A stretch of DNA of 64,000 nucleotides from Thermoleophilaceae bacterium. Its GTDB lineage: Bacteria; Actinomycetota; Thermoleophilia; Solirubrobacterales; JACPNS01. The position numbers and the translations under genes are program-made. Positions 19,685 through 35,526 of the stretch are shown here, in pieces; the first letter of the stretch is position 1; every line of letters begins with the position of its first letter. The stretch is from contig JAEMSX010000002.1 in assembly GCA_016462645.1 (NCBI GenBank), forward strand, positions 57,481 through 121,480, read 5' to 3'. The notes beneath the pieces are model-generated. The model did not search any database. It was not told the origin of the DNA and saw nothing but the letters and a program-made list of their open reading frames with translations.

Positions 19685-22396
19685 GTGGCCAAAGCTGATC
19701 CAGACGCACGCAAGCTCTACCTGCTCGACGGCAACTCGCTGGCCTACCGCGCGTTCTTCGCGCTGCCAGACACGTTCGTGAACGCGAAGGGCATGCCGAC
19801 CGGTGCGCTCTTCGGCCTGGCAAACATGTGGGTGAAGCTGATCGAGGACAACGACCACGGCACGCCGGCTGTGATCGCAGTCTGGGACGCCGGCCTGTCT
19901 GGTCGTGGAGAGATCTACGAGCCGTACAAGGCGCAGCGCGACGCCAAGCCCGATGCCCTGCGCGAGCAGTGGCCGCACTTCTATCCGCTGGCCGAGGCTT
20001 TCGGCTTCAAGAACGTGCGTGTCGACGGTTGGGAAGCAGACGACGTGATCGCGTCGATCGCCGAGAAGGCCAAGGCCGAGGGCTACTGCGTTGTCATCGT
20101 CACCGGCGACCGCGACTCCTTCCAGCTCGTCGACGACGAGCACGGCCCCGTGACGATCATGGCCACCGGCCGAGGAATCACCGACACGACGATCTACGAC
20201 GAGGGCGCGGTTCAGGAGCGCTACGGAATCCCGGCACGGCTCGTGCCTGACTTCATCGGCCTGAAGGGCGACACCTCGGACAACATCCCTGGCGTCCCCG
20301 GCATCGGCGAGAAGACTGCGATGCAGCTGCTCCAGGAGTTCGGCGGACTCGAAGAGGTGCTCGCCAACATCGACAACATCTCCGGCGCCAAGCGCAAGGA
20401 GAATCTCGCCAACAACGCCGACCTCGCACGGATCTCGCGCGATCTGGCGACCATGCACCGCGACATCGAGTTGCCCGAACTCTCAATCGAAGAAGTCTTC
20501 GCGTCGCGGATCGACCCGAAGGCGCTGCGCGACCAACTGCGCGAGAACGATCTGCGCGAGCCGTTGCGCCGGGTCGAGCGGCTCTTCCAGGAGGCCGAGT
20601 TCGAGGGCATCGAGGATGAGATTCGCGAGGCGATGGCTGAGGAGTCCGGCGCGGAGGAGGCTGTCGCGGAGATCACGGTCAAGCAGACGCCGGTAGGGGC
20701 GCTCGAGAAGGTGTTCACCGACCCTGCGCAGTTTCTCGTCCATCGCGCGGATGCCGCGCTTGACGGGCCGGCCGATTCCCTCCTGGCCGACGCCGAGAAT
20801 CAGTCAGCCGGCGAAGCGGCGCGCTACGCGGTCGTCGCGAAGAACGGCGTGGTGCATGTTGGTGAGGCGGCTTCGGTGGAGGAGTTCCTGGCGCTCGTTG
20901 GTGAGCGCGCGGTGGTCACGCATGACCTCAAGGCGCAGCTCGAGCGCACCGACGCGGCTGTTCCGCAGCTCGATCACGACACGCGCATTGCTGCCTACCT
21001 GATCGATTCGGCGCGACGCCAGTACGCGATTCGCGAGATGGCGATCGAGCTGGGCGTGCAGCCGGGCGCGGTGGACGACGACGCGATCCCGGCCGAACTC
21101 ACCCAGCTGGCGATTGACGCCGACGCGATGGTTCGCGTCGCCGAGCTTCAGCGCGAAGAGCTGAAGTCGTTGGGCCTCGAGAAGGTCGAGAAGGAGGTCG
21201 AGCTCCCGCTCGTCTCCGTGCTCGTGGAGATCGAGCGCAATGGTCTGAAGCTTGATGTCGACGCGCTGGCGAAGGCTGCCGAGGGATTCGTCGAGGAGAT
21301 CGCTCAGCTCGAGTCCGACATCTACGAGCTCGCCGGCAGGCAGTTCACGATCGGCTCGCCCAAGCAGCTCGGACCGATCCTCTTCGAGGAACTCGGTCTT
21401 CCCGCCGGACGCAAGGGCAAGACCGGGTACTCGACCGACGCTCGCGTGCTCGCGGGAATCCGCGACAAGCACCCGATCGTGGAGAAGATCGAGCGCTGGC
21501 GCGAACTGACCAAACTGAAGAGCACATATGTGGACTCGCTGCCCAAGGACGTCTCGCCCAAGGACGGCCGCATCCACACCACGCTCGACCAGACGCGCGC
21601 GGCGACCGGGCGCCTCAGCTCGACCAATCCCAACCTGCAGAACATCCCCGTGCGCACGCCGCTCGGCGCGACGATCCGCGAGTGCTTCGTCGCAGAGCCG
21701 GGGATGATCCTGACCAGCGCCGACTATTCACAGGTGGAGCTGCGCGTGCTGGCGCAGGTCGCAGACGACGAGGTCCTGAAGGACATTTTCCGCCGCGGTG
21801 AAGACGTGCACACAGAGACCGCTGCCGCAATCTTCGGTATCGATCCCGCCGATGTCGACCACGCCACGCGCGATCGCGCCAAGGCCGTCAACTTCGGGAT
21901 CATCTACGGGCTGAGCGCGTTCGGCCTGAGCGACCGCCTGAAGATCCCGCGCGATGAAGCCGCCGAGTTCATCAAGCGCTACCTCGGCCGCTTCACCGGC
22001 GTGAAGCAGTTCATGGACGACACGGTCGCCCAGGCCAAGAAGGACGGCTATGTCACGACCCTGATCGGCCGCCGCCGCGCGATCCCGGAGATCAACTCCT
22101 CGCAGGTCCAGACGCGCAACCTCGGCGAGCGGCTCGCGATCAACACCGTCGTGCAGGGCACCGCCGCCGACATCATCAAGCAGGCGATGATCGATGTGAG
22201 CAAGGCTCTGGCCGAGAGTGGCCTCAAGACCAAGCTTGTTCTGCAGATTCACGACGAACTGCTTTTCGAAGGGCCGAAGGACGAGGCCGACGCAATCGCC
22301 GAGCTGGCCGTGCGCGTGATGGCCGACGCCTATCCGCTCGATCCGCCGCTCGGTGTGTCGGTCGGCTCGGGCCCGAACTGGCTCGCTGCCAAGTAG
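19685..22396 (+). CDS. polA: DNA polymerase I
   Basis: 903 aa, GTG start. 5' nuclease N-terminus (LLDGNSLAYRAFFAL, GDRDSFQL). Polymerase motifs DYSQVELRVLA, RDRAKAVNFGIIYG, QIHDELLFE. Confidence 0.97.
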   Translation: MAKADPDARKLYLLDGNSLAYRAFFALPDTFVNAKGMPTGALFGLANMWVKLIEDNDHGTPAVIAVWDAGLSGRGEIYEPYKAQRDAKPDALREQWPHFYPLAEAFGFKNVRVDGWEADDVIASIAEKAKAEGYCVVIVTGDRDSFQLVDDEHGPVTIMATGRGITDTTIYDEGAVQERYGIPARLVPDFIGLKGDTSDNIPGVPGIGEKTAMQLLQEFGGLEEVLANIDNISGAKRKENLANNADLARISRDLATMHRDIELPELSIEEVFASRIDPKALRDQLRENDLREPLRRVERLFQEAEFEGIEDEIREAMAEESGAEEAVAEITVKQTPVGALEKVFTDPAQFLVHRADAALDGPADSLLADAENQSAGEAARYAVVAKNGVVHVGEAASVEEFLALVGERAVVTHDLKAQLERTDAAVPQLDHDTRIAAYLIDSARRQYAIREMAIELGVQPGAVDDDAIPAELTQLAIDADAMVRVAELQREELKSLGLEKVEKEVELPLVSVLVEIERNGLKLDVDALAKAAEGFVEEIAQLESDIYELAGRQFTIGSPKQLGPILFEELGLPAGRKGKTGYSTDARVLAGIRDKHPIVEKIERWRELTKLKSTYVDSLPKDVSPKDGRIHTTLDQTRAATGRLSSTNPNLQNIPVRTPLGATIRECFVAEPGMILTSADYSQVELRVLAQVADDEVLKDIFRRGEDVHTETAAAIFGIDPADVDHATRDRAKAVNFGIIYGLSAFGLSDRLKIPRDEAAEFIKRYLGRFTGVKQFMDDTVAQAKKDGYVTTLIGRRRAIPEINSSQVQTRNLGERLAINTVVQGTAADIIKQAMIDVSKALAESGLKTKLVLQIHDELLFEGPKDEADAIAELAVRVMADAYPLDPPLGVSVGSGPNWLAAK

Positions 22397-23318: not shown

Positions 23319-24071
23319 ATGTCTCCGCGTGACCTCATCGCTCAGCTACTTGAGCAGGGGGGCGCCGACGACGTGAGCGGTGGCGACTCGATCGCAGAAC
23401 GCGTCTACCAGGACCTTCGCGGCGAACTGCTCTTCGGGCAGATCCCGCTCGGTGAGCGCCTGGTCGAGGAGCATCTCGCCGAGCGCTACGAGTGCAGCCG
23501 CACGCCCGTCCGCGAGGCGCTGCATCGCCTCCAGGCCGACGGCCACGTCGTCAAGCATCCGATGGGCGGAATCACTCCGCAGCCGCCGCAGGCGACCGCG
23601 CTCGAGGAGCTCTACGAGCTTCGCGTCGTGCTCGAGGACCTGATCGTCCGCCGTGCCGCGAACGCCGAGGAGAAGCTCGAGGTCGCCGACCTGCGCGCCA
23701 GCTGGGCCGAGCTCGCTGAGCTCGACCCGGAGCGTCGCGCCAGGATCGGCACACCCGACTTCGTCTACGCCGATGAGGCCTTCCACGAGGGCCTCGCTGC
23801 CGCCGCCGGAAACCACTCGGCCGCGCGCTACCTGCGGGACATCAACGAGCGCATCCGCATCCTGCGCGTCCACGACTTCACGACCGACGACCGCATCGAC
23901 GCCACGATCGTCGAGCACATCGAGATCGCAGATGCGGTGCTCGCCGGCGAGGCTGACGCCGCCGCCGCGCTGATGCGCGTTCACATCGACCGCAGCGCTC
24001 GTGTCGTTGAAGACCGCGTGGGCCGGATGCTCACAAGAATGTTCGACGCATCACAAGGGAGCGCCGAGTAG
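23319..24071 (+). CDS. GntR-family transcriptional regulator (FadR/FCD-type C-terminal domain)
   Basis: 250 aa. w[33 protein letters not shown]. All-helical C-terminal domain with His residues ([14 protein letters not shown]). Confidence 0.88.
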
Positions 24072-25627
24072 TGGAAGCTCAGATGAACCCCGAGCCGACT
24101 CCGTCGGTCGCCGTCATCGGTCTGACCAAGCGTTTCGGCAGCCTGGTCGCCAACAACAAAGTCGACTTCGAGCTCTACCCCGGCGAGGTGCACGCGCTAC
24201 TCGGCGAGAACGGCGCCGGCAAGTCCACGCTCGCGAAATCGCTCTACGGCGTGAACGTGCCCGACGAGGGCCAGATCCTCGTCGACGGCGAGCCGCTCGA
24301 GATCGACTCACCGGCGGTCGCCCGCGAAGCCGGCATTGGGCTCGTCTTCCAGGACTTCCGGCTGATCCCGGCGCTCACCGTGCTCGAGAACATCGCGCTC
24401 GCGCTTCCCGAGCACGGCATTCTGCTCAACAACGACGAGATCGAGGAGCGCTTCGTCGCGCTCGCCGAGCAGTACAACATGAGCGTTCACCCGCATCGCC
24501 TGATCGAGGAGATCTCGATGAGCGAGCGGCAGCAGGCGGAGATTCTCAAGGTGCTGCTCTGCGGCGCCAAGACCGTCATCCTCGACGAACCCACCAGCCT
24601 GCTCGCACCGCAGGAAGTCGAGGGCCTGATGAACGTCATCCGCGATCTGCGCGACCAGGGCTTCGCGCTGGCGATCATCACGCACAAGATTCCGGACGTT
24701 CGCGCCGTCTGCAACCGCGTCACGATCCTGCGCCAGGGCACCGTCGTCTTCGCAACCGACAAGCTCGCCGAAATGAGCGACGAGGAACTGATCGACAACG
24801 TGGTCGGCCAGGAGATCCCGACGCTCACGCATCGCCCGCAGGTGGTCGCGCACGCAGAGGGTCCGGCCCTGATGCTCGAACACATCACGGTCAACGGCGA
24901 CAACGACCTTCCGGCGATCAAGGGACTCACGCTGGTCGCAGAGCGCTGCGAGGTGATCGGCGTCGCCGGCGTCTCCGGCGGTGGTCAGCGCGAGCTGGCC
25001 GAGGCGATCATGGGCTTGCGGCCCCTCGTCAACGGCCAGATCTCGGTGCGCGGCGCGCACGTCGAGGGCAAGACCGTCGAGGAGATCCGCGAAGCCGGCG
25101 TCGCCGTGATGGCCGAAGACCCGCTTTCGATGGAAGTCGTTCCCGGCCTCAGCATCGCCGAGCACATGGCGATCGGCGGCATCGATCCGCCGAAGACGCG
25201 CATCGGTTACGACTGGAAGCGCGTCGCCGAGGAGACCGGCGATCTCGAGTCCGCCAAGGCGATCGGGCTCGCCGACCCCAACCGCCGCGTCGACTCGCTC
25301 TCGGGCGGAAACGTCCAGCGTCTGATGATCGTCCGCTCGCTGGTCAGCGACCCGAAGGTCGTCGTGGCTTGCTACCCGACCCGCGGACTCGACCTTTTCT
25401 CAGTCAGCACCACGCACAAACTGCTCTTTGAACAGGCAGAGAAGGGGGCAGCAGTGATTTTCATCTCGGAAGATCTCGACGAGCTCTTCACCGTCAGCGA
25501 CCGGCTCATCGTGCTTCACGACGGCGAACTGGCCGGCGACCTCAAGCCGTCGGAGACGACGCGTGCCGAAGTCGGCGCGATGATGCTCGGACGAAAAGAA
25601 GCTGAAGAAGCGGCGGCAATCGGATGA
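24071..25627 (+). CDS. ABC transporter ATP-binding protein, duplicated ATPase (BMP/sugar-type importer)
   Basis: 518 aa. Walker [10 protein letters not shown], signature-like MSERQQAEI, Walker B VILDEPT. Second, degenerate domain ([18 protein letters not shown]). GTG overlaps the GntR stop by 1 nt. Confidence 0.9.
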
Positions 25628-26649
25628 GTGCTCCGGACGCCACAGTCACCACCGGCGAGGAATCGCGCGGCTTCGACCCGCGGGCCTGGGTGCCCACCGG
25701 CACGTGGTTCAAGATCGCCGCGCCGATCGCCGCGCCGCTGCTGATTCTTCTGATCATCCCGCTCTTCGGGATCGACGTGCCGGCTGTGATCACTCGCTCG
25801 GTCCCATTCATTCTCGCCGCGCTCGCCGTGGCGCTCCCTGCGCGTGCCGGGTTGATCAACGTCGGAGGTGAGGGTCAGATCTTCATCGGCGCGGTCTTCG
25901 GCGCCGCGTTCGTGAAGATTGTCGGTGGCGGCCTGCCGCTCCCGGTGATGCTGCCGATGGTTCTGATCGCCGGCACGATCGGTGGGGCGCTCTGGGTCGG
26001 CATCGCGGCGTTCCTGAAGGCCTACTTCAACGTCAACGAGACGATCGCGACGCTGCTGCTCAACTACGTCGCGCTCTACGTCCTCTCGTACATGGTCAAC
26101 GGCGCGCTGAAGGACCCGGAGTCCTACGGCTTTGCGATCGGAGCGATGCTCCCCGACTCGGCGCTGCTGCCGCAGCTCGGAATCTCGACGCTGAGCATCG
26201 GCATCGTGCTCGCCGTACTGATGACGATCGCAGTCTGGCTTCTGCTCGATCGCTCGCGCTGGGGCTTTCGCGCGAAGGTCGTCGGCGGCAACCCCGAGGC
26301 GGCCCGTCGGGGCGGCTTCGCGGTCAACCGCACCGTTGTGACGGCGCTGCTCCTCGGTGGAGCGATCGCAGGATTCGCGGGCGTCGTCGAACTCGCGGGA
26401 ACTGAACTCCAGCTCCGCGCGCAGATGGCGACCGGCTTCGGTTACATCGGCTTCCTCTGCGCCTTTCTCGTAGCTCAGCGCGCCGCCTGGATCCCGGCCG
26501 GCGCGATGTTGCTGGCAGCCATCTCGGTCTACGGCGACAGCCTGCAGCTCGACTTCGGTCTCCCGGCGGCAAGCGTTTACGTGGTGATGGCCGTAATCGT
26601 CCTGTTTGTACTCGGAATGCGTGGCACAAAAACGAAAGGCGCCAACTGA
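25624..26649 (+). CDS. ABC transporter permease 1
   Basis: 341 aa polytopic. Overlaps the ATPase stop. Confidence 0.88.
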
Positions 26650-27557
26650 TGCTTGAAGCAATCATCCTCGGAGCCGTCAGTTACGGCGCATGCCTGATCT
26701 TTGCCGCTGAAGGCGAGCTGATCGCAGAGCGCTCCGGCATCGTCAACCTCGGCACAGAGGGCTCGATCCTCTGCGGCGCGCTGCTGTCGTTCATGGTCAC
26801 GGTCTGGACGGGCTCGCCCTACATCGGCGCGATCTTCGGACTCGTCGGCGGCGCACTGCCGGCTCTGCTCCACGCGTTCATGGTCGTGGGCCGCAAGGCT
26901 GACCAGCTCGCCAGTGGTCTCGCGATCACGTTCCTCGGACTCGGCGTCACAGCCGCGCTCGGCAAGAGCTTCGTCGACGACAAGATCAACGGCATGGATG
27001 CGATCGGCATTCCGCTGCTCAAGGACATCCCGCTGATCGGAAGCGCCTTCTTCGACCAGGACATCCTGACCTACCTCGCCCTGCTCGTCGGACCGGCGCT
27101 CTGGTGGTTCTTCAAGCGCACCCGCGCCGGTTTGATCCTGCGCGCGACCGGTGAGAGCGGCGACGTCGTCTACGCCTACGGTCACTCGCCGCGCAAAGTC
27201 CGCTATCTCGCGGTCACCGCCGGCGGCGCGCTGGCCGGACTCGGTGGCGCGCAGCTGGTGCTCGCGACCACGCTCAACTGGACCGAGAACATCACGCAGG
27301 GTCGCGGCTTCGTCGCCGTCGCGCTCGTGATCTTCGCCTCCTGGCTTCCGCTCAGGGCGGCCGGCGGAGCGCTGCTCTTCGGCGCTGCCTTCGCGCTCAA
27401 CCTCGTGCTCCAGACCGAGGGCGTCGGAATCCCATCCTTCTATCTGCTGATGCTCCCGTACGTGCTGACTCTGATCGTTCTTGCGGTCACGAGCAAGGGG
27501 CAGAAGCAGATGATGCCGGCCGGATTGAAGGCCGTGTTCGCTCCCGGTGGGACGTAG
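26649..27557 (+). CDS. ABC transporter permease 2
   Basis: 302 aa polytopic. Start overlaps the permease-1 stop. Confidence 0.88.
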   Translation: MLEAIILGAVSYGACLIFAAEGELIAERSGIVNLGTEGSILCGALLSFMVTVWTGSPYIGAIFGLVGGALPALLHAFMVVGRKADQLASGLAITFLGLGVTAALGKSFVDDKINGMDAIGIPLLKDIPLIGSAFFDQDILTYLALLVGPALWWFFKRTRAGLILRATGESGDVVYAYGHSPRKVRYLAVTAGGALAGLGGAQLVLATTLNWTENITQGRGFVAVALVIFASWLPLRAAGGALLFGAAFALNLVLQTEGVGIPSFYLLMLPYVLTLIVLAVTSKGQKQMMPAGLKAVFAPGGT

Positions 27558-27638: not shown

Positions 27639-28772
27639 ATGCTCAAACGATCCTCAAAGTGGCTGGCTTTCGTAGCCCTCGCCATGCTCTCGGCTTTCGG
27701 AGTCACCGCGTGCGGCTCCGATACCGCGACTTCAACCTCCGGAGACGCGGAGGGGCAGACCGTCGGCTTCCTCTACGTCGGACCGAAGAACGACTTCGGC
27801 TACAACCAGGCGGCCTACGAGGGCTCGCTCGAGGTTGAGAAGAACGTCCCCGGCACCAAGCTGATCCAGGCTGAGAACGTGCCTGAGACCTCTGAAGCTT
27901 CTCGCGTGATGGAGAAGATGATCAAGGACGGCGCGACGACTATCTTCGCCACCAGCTACGGCCACCTGCAGCCGATGCTGGCTGTCGCCAAGAAGCACCC
28001 GGAAGTCACCTTCGAGCACCAGGGCGGCGTGAAGTCCGGTGCCAACGTCGGCACGTACTTCGGCCAGATCTACGAGGCCCAGTACCTGACCGGAATGGCA
28101 GCGGGACTCTCGACCAAGTCGAACAAGCTCGGCTACGTCGTGGCTGTGCCGATCCCGCAGACGCTGCTCAACATCAACGCTTTCGAGCTCGGCGCTCAGT
28201 CGGTCAACCCGAAGGCGAAGACGACAGTCGTCTTCACCGGCTCCTGGTGTGACCCCGCGAAGCAGAAGGAAGCCGCAGACACGCTGATCCAGGGCGGCGC
28301 TGACGTGCTCAGCCAGCACCAGGACTGCACCAAGACGATCGTCGAGACGACGGAGAAGGCCGGCGCGATGTCGGTCGGATACCACGCCGACGCATCCTCG
28401 CTCGCCCCGAACGGCTGGCTCACCGGCTCCGTCTGGAACTGGGGACCGCTCTACACCGACATCGTGAAGACGATCGGCGAGGGCAAGTGGAAGGGCTCCA
28501 AGTACGACGCCGACTACCGCGTCGGGTTCGCCGACAGCGACGTCATCGAGCTGGCTCCGTTCGGATCGGCCGTGACGCCGGAGGTCGAGAAGCAGGTCCT
28601 CGCTAAGCAGGAAGAGATGAAGGCGAAGGACTTCTATCCGTTCGAAGGCCCGGTCGTGGACCAGGCTGGCAAGACCCAGATCCCGAAGGGCGAGAACCCG
28701 ACCCCTGCCGAACTCGAGACCACCGACTACCTGGTCCAAGGCGTCGTCGGCAAGATCCCGACAGGCAAGTAG
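27639..28772 (+). CDS. BMP-family (PnrA/Med-like) ABC substrate-binding lipoprotein
   Basis: 377 aa. Signal plus lipobox (FGVTAC GSD). VGFLYVGPKNDFGYNQA and YVVAVPIPQ are typical of basic-membrane-protein SBPs. SD GAAAGGGAAA upstream. Confidence 0.85.
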   Translation: MLKRSSKWLAFVALAMLSAFGVTACGSDTATSTSGDAEGQTVGFLYVGPKNDFGYNQAAYEGSLEVEKNVPGTKLIQAENVPETSEASRVMEKMIKDGATTIFATSYGHLQPMLAVAKKHPEVTFEHQGGVKSGANVGTYFGQIYEAQYLTGMAAGLSTKSNKLGYVVAVPIPQTLLNINAFELGAQSVNPKAKTTVVFTGSWCDPAKQKEAADTLIQGGADVLSQHQDCTKTIVETTEKAGAMSVGYHADASSLAPNGWLTGSVWNWGPLYTDIVKTIGEGKWKGSKYDADYRVGFADSDVIELAPFGSAVTPEVEKQVLAKQEEMKAKDFYPFEGPVVDQAGKTQIPKGENPTPAELETTDYLVQGVVGKIPTGK

Positions 28773-28792: not shown

Positions 28793-29386
28793 ATGTCAAA
28801 CGCATCAACACAAGACGTCTCGGCTGATGCGCCGATCGTGGTCAGCGGCACCCGCCCGTATGCATGGCCCTACGACAGCCGGCTCGACCCCACGGACTTC
28901 GCGTTCGTGGTGGTCACCGGCTCGTCGGCCGGCCAGAGCGGGCAGCCGCCGGCAGACCTCGTCGAGGCCTGCAAGGCGTTCGCCGCAAAGGTGACCGCAC
29001 TCGGTGGCTCAGTCATCTGGACGGCGTGCAACGGAAGCGCGCTCCCCGATGGACTGGCGAGCACGGACATGACGTCCGAATCGCCGACCTCGAACGGCAT
29101 GATCGGCGGCGAACTGGAGCTGATCCTGCGCAGCCAGGGCATCGACCGCTTTGCGATTGCGGGCTGGCCCCTTGAGATCGCCGTTCACTCAACACTGCGG
29201 CGCGCAAACGACATCGGCTACGAGTGCATCCTGCTCGAAGACCTCTGCGTGCCGCTCGACCCGGACCTCATGGAATCGTCTGTCTCACAGATCCTGATGT
29301 CCGGAGGAATCTTTGGCGCCGTGGGCGAATCCGCGGCGCTGCTCGAAGCATTGAACACTTCAACCCCCGAAGGAGACCAGGCGTGA
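28793..29386 (+). CDS. Isochorismatase-like hydrolase paralog lacking the Asp-Lys-Cys triad (predicted pseudoenzyme)
   Basis: 197 aa. Homologous to the next gene (PYAWPY; [17 protein letters not shown]; [15 protein letters not shown]). It has T42 for Asp and A130 (GCC 29180-29182) for the nucleophile Cys. No equivalent Lys, and a ~40-aa deletion. Confidence 0.8.
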
Positions 29387-30099
29387 TGGAGACCACTGCG
29401 CTGGGCGAGAAGCGGATCACTGGCGTCGCTGGAGACCCGTATGACTGGCCCTACAACCAGAATCTCGACCTTGAGAAGACCGCGCTCATTCTGATCGACT
29501 GGCAGACCGACTTCTGCGGCGAGGGCGGCTACGTCGACCACATGGGCTACGACCTTGCACTCACCCGGGCGGGAATCCCGGCGACTCAGAAGGTGCTGGC
29601 GCGCTGGCGCGAGCTGGGCCTGCTCGCCGTGCACACGCGCGAAGGGCACAAACCCGACCTCTCGGACTGCCCTCCTAACAAGCTCTGGCGCTCGAAGCAG
29701 ATGGGGGCCGGGATCGGCGACTCAGGTCCCTGCGGCAGGATCCTCGTGATCGGCGAGCCGGGCCAGGACATCGTGCCCGAGCTGTACCCCGAGCCGGGCG
29801 AGATCGTGATCGACAAGCCCGGCAAAGGCGCGTTCGTGGCGACAAACCTCGACCTGATCCTGCGCACCAACAACATCGAGAACCTGATCTTCACCGGCAT
29901 CACCACCGACGTGTGCGTGCACACGACGATGCGTGAGGCGAACGACATGGGTTACGAGTGCCTGCTGCTTTCAGACTGCACGGGCGCCACGGACTACGGC
30001 AACTACGAAGCCGCGCTCAAGATGGTCAAGATGCAGGGCGGAGTCTTCGGGTCGGTTGCGACCAGTGAAGACCTGCTCGGCGCCTTGTCGGTCCTTTAG
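29386..30099 (+). CDS. Isochorismatase-like cysteine hydrolase (intact triad; biuret-hydrolase/CSHase-like subgroup suspected)
   Basis: 237 aa from [10 protein letters not shown] (ATGA overlap with the preceding stop at 29384-29388). LILID38WQTDF, VIDK144PGKGAF, TTDVC177VH (TGC 29914-29916). The track start at 29224 overlaps the previous gene and is rejected. Confidence 0.88.
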
Positions 30100-30110: not shown

Positions 30111-31553
30111 ATGACAAGCGTTGCAACAAATGCCTTCGCGTGGGCACTTGAGTACCTCGCGGAGTGGGACACCGACGACCTCGAGCGCCGCGTCGCCTTC
30201 GACCTGTGGGCCGGAGAGCGCGGGGTGGGGGCGGCGAGCGGCACGCCGACCACCGTCGGTGTTGATTCAGGCAGGATCGCTGAGGCTGCCGCAAAGCTGG
30301 CCTCCGGCGAGACAACCTCGGTCGCCCTGGTCGAGGAGGCCCTTGCGGTCGCCGCCGATCACAACGAGCGGCTCGTCGGATTCGTCGAGCTCACCGCAGA
30401 ATCGGCACTGGCCGACGCAGCCGCGCTCGACGCCGAGCGCGCCGCCGGTGAAGTGCGCGGACCGATGCACGGAATCCCGATCTCCGTGAAGGACGTGATC
30501 CACGTCGCCGGCGTTCCGACGCGCTGCGGCTCGGACGCCTTTGAGGCGCTGCCTGAACACGACGCCTGGGCCGTCGCGCGCATGCGCGAGGCCGGCGCGG
30601 TGATTCTCGGCAAGGTCGCAACGCACGAGTTCGCGCTCGGCGTCACCTCGCCGCAGTCGCGCAATCCTCACGATCCCACCCGTATTCCCGGGGGATCCTC
30701 CGGCGGTTCCGCCGTCGCCGTCTCCACCGGCATGGGGCTGGGCTCGATCTGCACCGACACGCGCGCTTCCTCACGCGTGCCCGCAGCACTGAGCGGAGTG
30801 GTCGGAATGAAGCCGACCTACGGAACGGTCCCGACCAAGGGTGTCGTGCCGCTGGCCTGGACGATGGACCACGTCGGCGTGATCGCCGACACCGTGGCCG
30901 ACACGGCGACGATGTTCGACATCCTGCGCGACCTGCCACCGATGGCGCCGGGAGTGAATGACGGGGTGGAGGGATTGAAGCTCGGCCTCCCCAGGGCAGC
31001 GTTTGAAGATGTCGATCCCGACGTCGAGGCGGTCGTGCGCGCCGGCGTCGAGCGGCTCGTCGGGGCCGGCGCAACGACGATCGACCTCGACACGCCGGGG
31101 GAACCCGACTTCACCGGAGCGAACGCCGGCGGCATGATCACGAGTCGTTGTGAGGCGGCAACCTTCCACAAATTCATCGACACCGACCGCAGTCTTTACT
31201 GGGGCGAGGTCCGCGACCAGCTCAACGCCGCAGACGAAGTGCTCGCCACCGAGTATCTCCAGGCTCAGCGCTACCGCGCGTGGCTGCGCGAGCGCATGCT
31301 CAAGGTCTTTGAGGGCGTGGACGCGCTAGTGATGCCGACCGTCCCTGTGCTGGCCCCGCCGGTCGAGGACGCCGACGACTACCTGACGATCCTCTCGCGT
31401 AACGCGATCCTCTGGAGCTTTGTCGGATTCCCAGCGATCTCGGTGCCTGCCGGCAAGTCGCCGTCGGGTCTGCCGATCGGCCTGCAGGTCGTCGGCGCCC
31501 CGTTTGCGGAGCGCACGCTGATCGCCGTCGCCGCAGCAGCCGAGACGGACTGA
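30111..31553 (+). CDS. Amidase-signature family amidase, copy 1
   Basis: 480 aa. SVKDV (Lys), GGSSGGSAVAV (cis-Ser), TDTRASSRVPA (nucleophile Ser retained). Confidence 0.9.
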   Translation: MTSVATNAFAWALEYLAEWDTDDLERRVAFDLWAGERGVGAASGTPTTVGVDSGRIAEAAAKLASGETTSVALVEEALAVAADHNERLVGFVELTAESALADAAALDAERAAGEVRGPMHGIPISVKDVIHVAGVPTRCGSDAFEALPEHDAWAVARMREAGAVILGKVATHEFALGVTSPQSRNPHDPTRIPGGSSGGSAVAVSTGMGLGSICTDTRASSRVPAALSGVVGMKPTYGTVPTKGVVPLAWTMDHVGVIADTVADTATMFDILRDLPPMAPGVNDGVEGLKLGLPRAAFEDVDPDVEAVVRAGVERLVGAGATTIDLDTPGEPDFTGANAGGMITSRCEAATFHKFIDTDRSLYWGEVRDQLNAADEVLATEYLQAQRYRAWLRERMLKVFEGVDALVMPTVPVLAPPVEDADDYLTILSRNAILWSFVGFPAISVPAGKSPSGLPIGLQVVGAPFAERTLIAVAAAAETD

Positions 31554-31604: not shown

Positions 31605-31617
31605 TTGTACGGCACAA
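31605..31617. promoter_or_regulatory. TTGTACGGCACAA imperfect palindrome in the inter-amidase gap (possible additional GntR-type site)
   Basis: TTGT-N5-ACAA with 5 of 6 pairs complementary. Shares the TTGTA half-site with the 23.2-kb operators. Lies 108-120 nt upstream of the ATG at 31725. Confidence 0.25.
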
Positions 31618-31724
31618 GCACGGGGCGGGTCGCCTGCGCGGGTAGCTTCGGTCTACAGCCACAGGTACGTACGTCGCGGCACCCCGTTAGCGATGGTGGC
31701 TTCACCCAACAGATTGATCAATTG

Positions 31725-33173
31725 ATGTCGAACCTGGCAACTGACGCGTTCCAGAACGCACTTGCGCTGCTCAGAAAGTGGCGCGCCGAGCGGGCAGACG
31801 CAGCTCCGGCATACGCCCTTGAGCTGCCGGTGGACCGCCCGAGCGAGCGTCCGGTCCAGCCTCCGTCACCGCGTCGTGGCGCGATCGCGTCCACCGAGCG
31901 GTTGCTCGATTCGCACGACGTCACTTCGGAAGAGCTCGTCTCGCGCTCACTGCGGGCGATCGCCGATCAGAACGATGAGCTCTACGCATTCGTGGAGATC
32001 CTCGAGGTCGAGGCGCTCGCGCGGGCAAAGAAGATGGACGTCGAGCGCGGCGCCGGCCGCGTGCGCAGCCCGCTGCACGGCATTCCCGTGTCGGTCAAGG
32101 ATCTCTACGCCGTGAAGGGCGGGACGACTCGCGCCGGCTCGCTCGGCTATGAACGCCGCGACGACCACGACGCCGTAGCCGTCAAGCGCCTGCGTGAGGC
32201 CGGAGCCGTGGTGATCGGTAAGACATCAACGCATGAGTTCGCGATGGGCGTGATCGCGCCCCAATCGCGCAATCCCCACGACACGACGCGTATTTCCGGT
32301 GGATCCTCCAGCGGCGCCGCCATCGCAGTCGCCACCGGAATGGGCATGGCGGCGCTCGGCACCGACACGCGCGGGTCGATCCGCATTCCCGCGGCGCTCT
32401 GCGGAGTCGTCGGCCTGAAACCGACTTTCGGGACGATCCCGCTGGATGGCGTGGTGCCGCTGGCGTGGTCGATGGATCACGTTGCGGTGATGGCGCCGTC
32501 CGCGGATGACGCCGCGACCGTGCTCGACGCCCTGACTCCGGAGAAGAAGACGGTCGACACGCCCGTCGCCGCGGTCAGCGACATTCGCGTAGGCCTGCCG
32601 CGCACGGCCTGGCGTGACGCCGAGCCGGCGGTCGAGCATTCGCTGGAGTCTGTGATGGACACGCTTGTCGCGACCGGCGTTGAGATGGTCGATGTGCAAC
32701 GCCCGAGCGCGATCGACTTCGACAACGCGAATCTCACCAGCATGGTCGTCTCGCGCTGCGAGGCGGCGGCGTTCCATCGCGATCTGGGTCTTGATCCGAT
32801 TCTCTACACGTCCGATGTGCGCACGCAGCTTGAGGTTGCCTCGGAGGCCACCGCGCAGGACTACATCGATGGCCAGCGCCTGCGCGCCGAGCTCCAGCGC
32901 GACATGCTCAGAGTCTTCGAGGACGTCGATGTGTTGTTGATGCCGACTGTGCCGATCGTCGCGCCGACCGTCGAGACCGCGGACCAGACCCCGCTCGTGC
33001 TCACGCGCAACGTCGCACTCTGGAGTTTTGTCGGATTTCCGGCCATCACGGTCCCGTGCGAGCCTTCGCCCGCGGGTCTGCCGATCGGCCTTCAAATCGT
33101 TGCCGCGCCGCACCGGGAGGCCGCGATTCTCGCGGTTGCCCGTGCAGTCGAGCGAGGGGTGAACGCGCGATAG
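31725..33173 (+). CDS. Amidase-signature family amidase, copy 2 (tandem paralog)
   Basis: 482 aa from MSNLATDAFQNAL (parallels MTSVATNAFAWAL of copy 1). SVKDL, GGSSSGAAIAV, TDTRGSIRIPA. The track start at 31605 is rejected. Confidence 0.88.
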   Translation: MSNLATDAFQNALALLRKWRAERADAAPAYALELPVDRPSERPVQPPSPRRGAIASTERLLDSHDVTSEELVSRSLRAIADQNDELYAFVEILEVEALARAKKMDVERGAGRVRSPLHGIPVSVKDLYAVKGGTTRAGSLGYERRDDHDAVAVKRLREAGAVVIGKTSTHEFAMGVIAPQSRNPHDTTRISGGSSSGAAIAVATGMGMAALGTDTRGSIRIPAALCGVVGLKPTFGTIPLDGVVPLAWSMDHVAVMAPSADDAATVLDALTPEKKTVDTPVAAVSDIRVGLPRTAWRDAEPAVEHSLESVMDTLVATGVEMVDVQRPSAIDFDNANLTSMVVSRCEAAAFHRDLGLDPILYTSDVRTQLEVASEATAQDYIDGQRLRAELQRDMLRVFEDVDVLLMPTVPIVAPTVETADQTPLVLTRNVALWSFVGFPAITVPCEPSPAGLPIGLQIVAAPHREAAILAVARAVERGVNAR

Positions 33174-33374: not shown

Positions 33375-34922
33375 GTGTCAACGACCCTTACCGAATCACC
33401 CGCAGTGGCCGAACCTACGGCCGCCGCACCTGAAACCGAAGCCCCTGCCGGAAACGTAGTTCCGGGATCCGACGGCCTGCTGCTCGAAGTCGACGGCAAG
33501 ATCGTCCCCAACTACGCCGCAACACTTGTCAACTTTGACGACGGAGACGTCGTCCAGGGCACGGTTGTCCAGATCGACCGCGACGAAGTTCTCGTCGACA
33601 TCGGATACAAGTCCGAGGGCGTCATCCCGGTCAACGAGCTTTCGATCCGCAAGAACGTCAACCCCGCCGATGAGGTCTCGCTCGGCGAAGAGGTCGACGC
33701 ACTTGTCGTCACCAAGGAAGACGCCGATGGGCGCCTGGTGCTCAGCAAGAAGCGCGCCAAGTTCGAGAAGGCATGGCGCAAGATCGAAGAAGCTGCCGAG
33801 TCTGGTGAGCCGGTTGAAGGAACCGTTATTGAAGTGGTCAAGGGTGGTCTGATCGTGGACCTCGGAATCCGTGGATTCCTCCCCGCATCGCTCGTGGACA
33901 TCCGACGCGTCCAGGACCTCGATGAGTTCCGCGCCACAACCGTGCGCTGCAAGGTCATCGAGCTCAACCGCTCACGCAACAACGTTGTGCTCTCCCGCCG
34001 CGCGATTCTCGAAGAAGAGCGTCGCGAAGTGCGCCAGCAGATCATCGGCTCGCTCGAGCGCGGTTCTGTTGTCGAGGGTGCGATCAGCAACATCGTGGAC
34101 TTCGGTGCATTCGTCGACCTCGACGGCATCGACGGCCTGATCCACATTTCCGAGCTCTCCTGGAGCCACGTCAACCACCCGAGCGAAGTTGTTTCGATCG
34201 GTGACGTCGTCAAGGTCAAGGTGCTCGACATCGACCACGACCGCCAGCGCATCTCACTGGGTCTCAAGCAGACCCAGGAAGACCCGTGGCAGAAGGTCAT
34301 CGACACGCACCACATCGGTGACGTGCTCGAGGGCACCGTCACGAAGATCGTCTCCTTCGGAGCGTTCGTCGAGATCTACAACGGCGTCGAGGGTCTCGTG
34401 CACATCTCGGAACTCTCCGAGCAGCACGTCGAGAACCCGCGTCAGGTGCTCAACGAGGCAGACGTCGTGCGCGTCCGCATCCTCGAGATCGACACCGAGC
34501 GTCGTCGCCTTTCCCTGAGCGCCAAGCAGGTTGATGGTCAGGAACTCGTTCCGGCCGAGCTCAACGAAGAGGGCGAAGTCATCACGCCGAAGGACCACGA
34601 CGTCGAAGAGGCGATCGCGGAGGCCCTTGGCGACCTCGACCTCGGCGACCTGAGTGAAGCGGCTCCGGAAGCCGAAGCGGAAGCCGCAACCGAAGCCCCT
34701 GCTGAAGAAGCAGCCCCGGCCGAAGAAGCTGCTCCTGAGGCTGAAGTAGCTGAAGAGGCGCCTGCCGCCGAAGAAGCTCCCGCCGAAGACGCCGGCGACT
34801 CCGCCGACGGCAACCTCGAGGACGCCGCTCCCGAGGTCGACCCGGCTCTGGAAGCTGGCAGCGCCGACACCGTCGACGCCGATGGCGATGAAGCCCCCGC
34901 CGCGGAAGCGCCCGCTGAGTAA
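33375..34922 (+). CDS. rpsA: 30S ribosomal protein S1 with acidic Ala/Glu-rich C-terminal tail
   Basis: 515 aa, GTG start. Four S1 repeats (GDVVQGTVVQID, VEGTVIEVVKGGLIVDL, VVEGAISNIVDFGAFVDL, VLEGTVTKIVSFGAFVEI). Confidence 0.95.
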   Translation: MSTTLTESPAVAEPTAAAPETEAPAGNVVPGSDGLLLEVDGKIVPNYAATLVNFDDGDVVQGTVVQIDRDEVLVDIGYKSEGVIPVNELSIRKNVNPADEVSLGEEVDALVVTKEDADGRLVLSKKRAKFEKAWRKIEEAAESGEPVEGTVIEVVKGGLIVDLGIRGFLPASLVDIRRVQDLDEFRATTVRCKVIELNRSRNNVVLSRRAILEEERREVRQQIIGSLERGSVVEGAISNIVDFGAFVDLDGIDGLIHISELSWSHVNHPSEVVSIGDVVKVKVLDIDHDRQRISLGLKQTQEDPWQKVIDTHHIGDVLEGTVTKIVSFGAFVEIYNGVEGLVHISELSEQHVENPRQVLNEADVVRVRILEIDTERRRLSLSAKQVDGQELVPAELNEEGEVITPKDHDVEEAIAEALGDLDLGDLSEAAPEAEAEAATEAPAEEAAPAEEAAPEAEVAEEAPAAEEAPAEDAGDSADGNLEDAAPEVDPALEAGSADTVDADGDEAPAAEAPAE

Positions 34923-34929
34923 GAAACCT

Positions 34930-35526
34930 GTGTTCATTGGCTTGACCGGCGGCGTTGCCGCCGGCAAGTCAACTGCACTTGCTGCGCTGGCCGAGGCCGG
35001 CGTACCCACGCTTTCGGCCGATGCCGTCGTGCATCAGGTCTACGAAGACCCGGAGATGATCGAGCTCGTTCGCGAGCGGCTCGGCGACGACGTGATCGTC
35101 GACGGTGCGGTCGATCGCGACGCCGTCGCCAGCGCGATCTTCGTCGAGCCGGAGCTGCGCTCCTGGCTGGAGCAGTTGATCTGGCCGCGCGTGGGGTTGA
35201 AGATCTTTGAGTTTCGCCGCGACCACGAGGCACTGGATGATCCTCCGGCCGCCACCGTCGTCGAGGTGCCGCTGCTTTTCGAGGCCGGGATGGATCAGGG
35301 CTTTGACCGCACGATCGCCGTGATCGTCGATGACGAGCTGCGCAAATCGCGCGCGGCGGAGCGCGGCGGGGAAGAGCTCGCCGCCCGCGACGAGCGACAG
35401 ATGTCGCAGGACGAGAAGGCCGAACGCGCCGATGTGGTCGTCGTGAATGACGGCGACCTCGAGCTGTTGGCGCAGCGTGCCGTCGCCGCCGTCGCGCAAT
35501 GCGTGGAGCTCGGCCCGCGCGTCTGA
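34930..35526 (+). CDS. coaE: Dephospho-CoA kinase
   Basis: Start placed at GTG 34930 (VFIGLTGGVAAGKST P-loop), avoiding overlap with rpsA. The track start at 34882 is possible but less likely. Confidence 0.88.
   Translation: MFIGLTGGVAAGKSTALAALAEAGVPTLSADAVVHQVYEDPEMIELVRERLGDDVIVDGAVDRDAVASAIFVEPELRSWLEQLIWPRVGLKIFEFRRDHEALDDPPAATVVEVPLLFEAGMDQGFDRTIAVIVDDELRKSRAAERGGEELAARDERQMSQDEKAERADVVVVNDGDLELLAQRAVAAVAQCVELGPRV

Follow-up and report, generated by a model that had tools for sequence, protein, structure and literature searches.

A triad-less paralog encoded beside a BiuH-type biuret hydrolase is a candidate non-catalytic subunit

Why should a bacterium keep, directly in front of the gene of an intact cysteine hydrolase, a gene for a shortened relative that has lost the catalytic residues? 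The question is raised by two adjoining genes in a stretch of 64,000 nucleotides from a Thermoleophilaceae bacterium (assembly GCA_016462645.1, contig JAEMSX010000002.1, positions 57,481 to 121,480; referred to below as the window and numbered from its first letter). ORF A (28793-29386, plus strand, 197 aa) encodes the shortened protein, and ORF B (29386-30099, plus strand, 237 aa) encodes a protein with the triad D38, K144, and C177. An initial annotation, made from the letters alone, had taken A for a catalytically dead member of the isochorismatase-like family that is retained by selection as a partner of B. From the evolution of the pair in related genomes, we infer that A is probably the non-catalytic (pseudoenzyme) subunit of a hetero-oligomeric enzyme of the biuret hydrolase (BiuH) type, in which B would carry the active site.

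A Dead Paralog Next to a Predicted Biuret Hydrolase

A and B are isochorismatase-like paralogs. Both score above the gathering score (27) of the Pfam family PF00857 (A, 46.5 bits; B, 135.2 bits), and BLASTP aligns them across the C-terminal 97 aa with 36% identity (E = 1e-20). They also have in common an N-terminal PYxWPY motif (PYAWPY at A residues 22-27, 28856-28873, plus strand; PYDWPY in B), whose P, Y, W, and P do not vary within either family. The homology proposed in the initial annotation thus stands. The two ORFs are read in different frames and meet at a junction (29368-29388, plus strand) where a Shine-Dalgarno-like GAAGGAG, lying inside the end of A 8-11 nt 5' of the B start, is followed by GTGATG. 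Within the sequence gcGTGATGg, the A stop codon TGA occupies 29384-29386 and the B start codon ATG occupies 29386-29388, an overlap of 1 nt (TGATG); with the in-frame GTG at 29383 as the B start, it becomes 4 nt (GTGA). The stop/start overlap and its position at 29384-29388 were therefore correctly called, but its motif is TGATG or GTGA and not ATGA. The G+C content at third codon positions (GC3) is 0.80 in A and 0.87 in B, with an overall G+C content of 0.65 in the window, in agreement with the coding bias noted earlier.

B scores 390.3 bits against the NCBIfam equivalog model of BiuH (NF050097), passing its cut-off of 370. Against the crystallized Rhizobium BiuH (6AZO) it scores 344 bits with about 70% identity, and against the Rhodococcus enzyme RhdBiuH (6XJM) 343 bits, compared with 198 bits for the triuret hydrolase TrtA and 90 bits for RutB. 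Residue numbers of BiuH equal those of B minus 2, and B therefore holds the triad (BiuH D36, K142, and C175) and all reported biuret-binding and trans-Gln residues: K147, F43, Y49, Y55, Q217, and V220 correspond to BiuH K145, F41, Y47, Y53, Q215, and V218. The triad codons are GAC 29497-29499 (D38), AAG 29815-29817 (K144), and TGC 29914-29916 (C177). This assignment, already made in the initial annotation, holds in the sequence and in an alignment of 77 B sequences, where the three residues are invariant (with one alignment gap at the Cys column); the further positions checked, K147, Q217, and V220, are invariant as well. Judged by its sequence, B is a BiuH-type biuret amidohydrolase, and conversion of biuret to allophanate is its predicted activity. 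Indirect support for biuret hydrolysis comes from the presence of an allophanate hydrolase equivalog directly downstream in many related loci. In two metagenome-assembled genomes (MAGs) the B gene is damaged: in locus L040 (6670-7212) B lacks residues from about 90 to 178, including Lys and Cys, and in L065 (6621-7287) it is split across two frames. Assembly errors or true gene decay may account for this damage.

A survey seeded with the A sequence was made over one genome per species (185,579 species). It returned 268 loci in species-representative genomes of Actinomycetota and some Chloroflexota; the synteny, junction, and triad counts given here rest on the best 80 of these 268 loci, or 81 copies with that of the window. 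In the window copy, T42 stands at the Asp site (VVVTGSS), S96 at the Lys site, and A130 (GCC 29180-29182) at the nucleophile site (LEIAVH). In a MAFFT alignment of 81 A and 77 B sequences, the site of B D38 is never Asp in A (G in 29 copies, T in 14, L in 11, and others), and the site of B K144 is never Lys (A in 44, S in 23, and others). At the site of B C177, Cys is found in 10 of the 81 copies and A, S, T, G, or P in the remainder; the ten proteins with Cys have neither Asp nor Lys. Three alignments agree on this assignment, namely that by MAFFT, that of the HMMER profile of A with BiuH (6XJM/6AZS), and that of the A model with BiuH by Foldseek, and the structure-based comparison turned up no alternative triad residues. 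The Asp-Lys-Cys triad of cysteine hydrolases is thus absent from A, as the initial annotation had claimed for T42, A130, and a missing Lys. Its absence is a family-wide property, and we conclude from the aligned sequences that A cannot be a Cys-Asp-Lys hydrolase.

A has also become shorter. Compared with B, about 45 residues are gone from the HTREGH...GEPGQD insert, which holds BiuH helix α2, and about 12 more from the mobile active-site (lid) loop; a gap of some 40 residues at the insert had been recognized before. No biuret-binding residue that acts in cis is left, and the trans positions are occupied by S170 and I173.

A search with A retrieved 144 proteins, about 180-215 aa long and with identities reaching down to about 35%; they belong to Solirubrobacterales, Thermoleophilia, and other Actinomycetota and are annotated just as "cysteine hydrolase" or "isochorismatase family protein." On the NCBIfam BiuH model, A itself reaches 78.9 bits against the cut-off of 370, with only its C-terminal half matching, and so falls outside the NF050097 equivalog. 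When the HMMER profile of the A family was compared with proteins of solved structure, BiuH scored 145 bits, TrtA 94 bits, and other isochorismatase-like proteins at most 63 bits. A is therefore a BiuH-derived paralog; descent from TrtA, or a degenerate TrtA, was rejected on the same scores. An AlphaFold2 (AF2) model of A built on a 100-sequence alignment is a single domain (predicted local distance difference test [pLDDT], 90.9; predicted TM-score [pTM], 0.88) of Rossmann-like α/β isochorismatase fold, with a helix at residues 127-140. Its top Foldseek matches in the Protein Data Bank are BiuH chains (TM-score [TMq], 0.74-0.76), and matches to BiuH, TrtA, and RutB together range from 0.69 to 0.76 at a probability of 1.00. 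Profile and model agree that A derives from a BiuH-like gene, and that it is well folded.

The A reading frame is intact in all 80 related loci, and we found none of the stops or frameshifts in orthologs that would mark a gene in decay. Pairwise dN/dS ratios, calculated by the Nei-Gojobori (NG86) method for the window and its ten closest loci, range from 0.08 to 0.37 for A, from 0.03 to 0.15 for B, and from 0.005 to 0.27 across the remaining operon genes. The values for A are well away from 1, and A is therefore under purifying selection, albeit 2-3 times more relaxed than B. Identity to the window copy among related loci is 67-93% for B and 36-82% for A.

Conserved Interface Elements, Constant Neighborhood, and Natural Fusions

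The solved BiuH is a dimer of dimers, in which helices α2 (95-102), α4 (178-186), and α5 (202-213) form a dimer interface of 1800 Å² (PMC5806882). Gln215 of the adjacent monomer reaches into its neighbor's active site and binds the distal amide of biuret; substitutions Q215A and Q215E raise KM more than 25-fold, and together with Val218, Gln215 of the adjacent subunit serves as the gate of the main substrate tunnel (PMC5806882). The trans Gln position, together with Ile (TrtA) or Val (BiuH) three residues further on, separates triuret from biuret specificity (PMC7948467).

Of these elements, A has kept helix α4 and the loop. Thirty-two positions of A are conserved at 90% or more: 4 belong to PYxWP, 15 to α4 and the strand after it, 8 to the loop M169-A176, and 5 to other parts of the fold. 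The loop (M-S-G-G-I-F-G-A, 29297-29320, plus strand) corresponds to BiuH 214-221, with the BiuH sequence M-Q215-G-G-V218-F, and is the best-conserved segment of A (0.98, compared with 0.94 in B); it has Ser in place of Gln215 and Ile in place of Val218 in 81 of 81 copies. The α4 region (A residues 127-140, 29171-29212, plus strand), which comprises the dead nucleophile site A130, the invariant E128, and the equivalent of BiuH helix α4, has a mean conservation of 0.84 and is 82% identical to the B consensus. By comparison, conservation is only 0.25-0.64 in the cis catalytic regions, that is, β1 with the Asp site, the lid loop, the Lys region, and the nucleophile strand. Family-specific differences from B are confined to 4 of these 32 positions: E128 (Asp in B, Glu in TrtA), S133 (Thr in B), S170 (Gln in B), and I173 (Val in B, Ile in TrtA). 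With the trans elements frozen and the cis regions variable, A has shed the parts needed for its own catalysis and kept what a neighboring subunit uses, a pattern that fits a trans-acting subunit.

The genomic neighborhood is equally constant. In 79 of the 80 loci, B directly adjoins A on the 3' side and has its orientation, and in the remaining one the contig stops before B; recurrence on this scale is not due to chance. A start codon overlapping the stop of A is available at 45 of the 81 junctions, giving a possible overlap of 4 nt in 43 and of 1 nt in 2. Gaps of at most 20 nt account for 16 junctions and gaps of 21-80 nt for 14; one junction is an in-frame fusion, four are unclear, and one is missing where the contig ends. 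The 80 loci include cultured carriers from Cellulomonas, Nocardioides, Microbacterium, Agromyces, Streptomyces, Acrocarpospora, Populibacterium, and Aquihabitans, many MAGs of Acidimicrobiia and Thermoleophilia, and three Chloroflexota. Cellulomonas humilata ATCC 25174 and Nocardioides fonticola JCM 16703 are examples of culturable carriers, and Microbacterium allomyrinae is another carrier.

The single fused junction, in Egibacteraceae (locus L037), joins A and B in one ORF of 442 aa through a Pro/Thr-rich linker. A search with this fusion returned many proteins of 400-525 aa (88-100% coverage, 53-64% identity), among which we counted at least 55 distinct in-frame A-B fusions and aligned 55. 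The N-terminal domains bear the signature of A, with SGGIFGA and without the triad, and the C-terminal ones are B-like with the full triad. The three fusions whose context was checked (L037, P0164, and P0184) all lie within an operon of the A/B type, and in the two that were traced to contigs, P0164 and P0184, the fusion gene stands between those of the Bmp-type binding protein and the amidase. The fused forms are not monophyletic in neighbor-joining trees (the largest pure clade holds 44 of the 55, next to several small ones), which are too rough for counting fusion events. An AF2 model of fusion P0132 (pLDDT 87.2, pTM 0.74) is disordered only in its 19-residue linker; we take its pTM to exceed that of two independently placed domains, for which a value near 0.5 is our expectation and not a computed estimate. 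The fused B domain superimposes on BiuH with a TM-score of 0.93-0.95. Fusion recurs with B and not with the regulator, the transporter, or the amidase, which suggests B as the partner of A, and the natural fusions point to a physical association of the two. The dedication of A to the live copy, suggested earlier from the overlap in the window, thus extends over the family, in adjacency, overlaps, and fusions alike.

The B domains of the fusions share 78-79% identity with RhdBiuH. Assayed alone, this enzyme was slow (1.7 U/mg), with a KM roughly 10-fold above that of other BiuH enzymes (PMC7948467).

A Putative Heteromer and Competing Explanations

We propose that synthesis of A is coordinated with that of B and that the two form a hetero-oligomeric BiuH-type amidohydrolase, which would serve an operon for uptake and degradation of biuret or a close ureide. 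In the most specific form of the proposal, contact between A and B would be made by the canonical BiuH dimer interface (helices α4 and α5), and the M-S-G-G-I-F-G-A loop of A would enter the active site of B in trans, replacing the Gln215/Val218 loop of the second BiuH subunit. A would thereby make B more stable and remodel or gate its substrate pocket at the far end. We hold this canonical A:B dimer, with the Ser/Ile loop of A completing the B pocket and altering its distal-amide end, only tentatively, at somewhat under an even chance. It is also conceivable, though on balance we doubt it, that A sets specificity: an A:B enzyme, its pocket enlarged or re-gated at the distal end by the Ser170/Ile173 loop, would handle a longer ureide, such as triuret, carboxybiuret, or an unknown compound imported through the Bmp protein, and B:B would keep the activity toward biuret.

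Several observations weigh against a heteromer. Rhizobium BiuH and RhdBiuH are active alone as homotetramers, and A is therefore not needed for BiuH chemistry as such. The strongest objection to the trans-loop model is that B keeps Q217, V220, K147, Y49, and Y55, as would be expected if the pocket of B were completed by another B. Helix α2, a component of the canonical BiuH interface, is missing from A. An analysis of A-B covariation (mutual information with average product correction, 128 non-redundant pairs) gave no guide to the interface used: the top inter-protein pairs were no stronger than those within either protein, and phylogeny dominated the signal. The retained residues of B favor one of two other geometries: the small tetramer interface might link an A2 dimer to a B2 dimer, or B:B and A:B dimers might coexist. 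With either, the role of A would be that of a stabilizer or a scaffold, and a neutral ratchet may have fixed it once the gene had been duplicated.

Other explanations dispense with an A-B enzyme. A might be a free-standing accessory protein of the pathway that forms no stable complex with B, and instead binds or chaperones a ligand or docks to the transporter or the amidase; the ligand might be the substrate, allophanate, or an effector of the GntR regulator. The strict linkage of A to the operon, its good fold with a vestigial pocket, and the apparent self-sufficiency of B as a BiuH would all suit such a role. A ligand site, however, should not be lined by the least conserved residues of the protein, and the Asp, Lys, and Cys sites of A vary freely; conservation is instead concentrated in the inter-subunit helix and the trans loop, and recurrent fusion is specifically to B. 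We therefore regard an accessory role as unlikely. Still less plausible is that A remains an enzyme through non-canonical residues (e.g., E128, H132, S133, and S170) and catalyzes another step, for example the decarboxylation or the hydrolysis of some carboxylated ureide. The invariance of the family-specific E128, S133, and S170 would agree with this, as would the Cys at the nucleophile site of 10 of the 81 A proteins. But H132 and its neighboring Ser/Thr are common to B and so are no new invention, and H132 and S133, adjacent in one helix turn, would make a poor dyad. The lid loop, Lys, and Asp are gone from a pocket whose residues vary, and no A sequence passes any enzyme equivalog model, so that we give this explanation very little weight.

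The loss of the triad and of about 57 residues, together with an evolutionary rate 2-3 times that of B, might also suggest a decaying pseudogene or a mis-called ORF left by a tandem duplication of biuH. We consider this refuted: the frame is open in 80 of 80 related loci from two phyla, the dN/dS ratios, the 32 conserved positions, and the GC3 value count against it, AF2 predicts a confident fold, and at least 55 fusions keep A in frame. The reading of A as a non-catalytic partner of B in a heteromer is the one that we consider probable.

The Operon and Known Relatives of the Pair

Across the 80 loci, the operon starts with the gene of a GntR/FCD regulator, continues with those of an ABC ATPase, two permeases, and a Bmp binding protein, and then has A, B, and usually an amidase. 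In the window, where all these genes are on the plus strand, the first operon gene encodes the GntR/FCD-family regulator (23319-24071; assigned by Pfam and by synteny across the 80 loci). It is followed by an ABC transporter (24071-27557) composed of an ATPase (24071-25627) and two permeases (25624-26649 and 26649-27557), whose gene order is kept in related loci, and by a Bmp/PnrA-family substrate-binding lipoprotein (27639-28772; PF02608, 155.9 bits). The Bmp/PnrA family is usually tied to nucleosides, and the protein is not of a urea or amide type. The Bmp gene always lies directly 5' of A in related loci, and its ligand, perhaps biuret or a related ureide, would therefore be new for the family.

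Downstream of B are two amidase-signature amidases: the first (30111-31553, 480 aa) scores 297.6 bits against PF01425, and the second (31605-33173; 294.8 bits) has an uncertain start at TTG 31605 or ATG 31725. Both (480-520 aa) fall below every NCBIfam cut-off; they come closest to models for indoleacetamide hydrolase and AtzE-like proteins, with scores of about 260-310 bits. They are not members of the allophanate hydrolase family TIGR02713, against which they score 208 and 214 bits (cut-off 511), and they have no allophanate hydrolase C-terminal domain. An NCBIfam scan of the roughly 50-aa N-terminal extensions of the two proteins (ATxAFxxALxxLxxW) gave no match. In many relatives the downstream amidase is a bona fide allophanate hydrolase (e.g., in loci L023, L032, L039, and L072, which pass TIGR02713), and in the clade of the window the two amidase-signature proteins replace it. 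An allophanate hydrolase in this position fits the route from biuret via allophanate to ammonia and CO2.

The two traced fusion operons differ at this point. In that of P0164 (L081, L082, 9377-11289), the fusion is followed by an amidase of 454-500 aa and an AtzH-like protein of 137 aa (PF11533), resembling the AtzE/AtzH carboxybiuret branch rather than the allophanate hydrolase arrangement; the operon of P0184 encodes an allophanate hydrolase with its C-terminal domain. The module may thus feed different downstream routes in different lineages.

The operon of the window is set between polA upstream (19685-22396) and rpsA with a coaE-like gene downstream (33375-35526). The closest relatives of the whole operon are MAGs of Solirubrobacterales and Thermoleophilaceae, with 82-95% protein identity. 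A search of the PLSDB plasmids with A found no member of the A family; all matches were to live BiuH/TrtA-like genes from Proteobacteria, with identities below 31%.

Among characterized proteins, BiuH of R. leguminosarum (6AZO) and of Rhodococcus sp. Mel (RhdBiuH, 6XJM) are related to B at the level of orthologs, with the same triad and biuret-binding residues, and BiuH is also the nearest solved relative of A by sequence and fold. The characterized enzymes, however, are homotetramers active alone, whereas here B is always paired with or fused to a triad-less, shortened paralog in an operon with a Bmp-type ABC transporter. The trtA-biuH-atzF operons of Proteobacteria likewise combine two paralogs of the BiuH clade with an allophanate hydrolase (PMC7948467), and two states of A are TrtA-like, the Ile three residues past the trans Gln position and the Glu two residues before the nucleophile position. 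TrtA, in contrast to A, is a full-length, live, and separately acting dimer; A is dead, about 40 residues shorter, nearer to BiuH, and linked to B by overlap or fusion.

By mechanism, the closest precedent is the metformin hydrolase MetCaCb/MfmAB, likewise an adjacent duplicated pair of a live and a catalytically dead paralog that degrades an N-rich, urea-like compound, the dead paralog capping or tuning the substrate pocket of the live one (PMC11271267, PMC11399263). There, a metal-free pseudoenzyme of the arginase fold binds and stabilizes the active paralog and caps its pocket (PMC11271267). Its fold and chemistry bear no relation to those of A and B (a binuclear Ni arginase fold), and the complex and partner dependence are experimental for MetCaCb and putative for A/B. 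The A/B locus shares one trait with pseudoenzyme heteromers of this type, a paralog without catalytic residues encoded beside a live copy.

A further parallel is offered by the cyanuric acid pathway, whose 1-carboxybiuret hydrolase AtzE needs a small non-catalytic partner, AtzG; unlike A and B, AtzG is no paralog of AtzE, which has the amidase-signature fold.

Tandem two-domain proteins of green algae, dinoflagellates, pelagophytes, and Paenibacillus also fuse a BiuH-grade domain to a paralog of the BiuH clade. In these, unlike in the bacterial A-B fusions, both domains keep Asp, Lys, and Cys, and the order is reversed, with BiuH preceding the paralog. They suggest that members of the BiuH clade tend to work as paralog pairs. 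The tandem proteins (P0142, P0141, P0152, P0228, P0124, and others; 450-550 aa) include Chlamydomonas CHLRE_10g448500v5 and proteins of Scenedesmus, Micractinium, and Paenibacillus sp. 598K; the N-terminal domain of the Chlamydomonas protein passes the BiuH cut-off with 395.8 bits, and its C-terminal domain scores 236 bits.

The initial annotation knew of no enzyme of the family with a dedicated dead-paralog subunit. We likewise found no description of a dead isochorismatase-like subunit or of a heteromeric BiuH in a literature search from which subscription journals were mostly out of reach. The pseudoenzyme-partner theme is known; the pair appears to be new for the isochorismatase-like superfamily, and a two-protein BiuH is probably undescribed.

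Biuret and triuret are fertilizer impurities and breakdown products of s-triazines, and BiuH and TrtA, the reference enzymes for them, have been studied as homomers. If the heteromer is real, annotations as "cysteine hydrolase family protein" hide a dedicated subunit in 268 species-representative genomes, and assays of B-type enzymes alone may misreport activity or specificity. Should A moreover set specificity, one gene pair would provide two specificities, and A would be the first pseudoenzyme subunit described in the superfamily. The pair would extend the pseudoenzyme-partner theme to the isochorismatase-like fold, and several of its carriers are culturable type strains, so that A and B are readily testable. 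With its cis catalytic elements decayed and its trans interface frozen, A would make a good system for studying how a homomer turns into an obligate heteromer after gene duplication.

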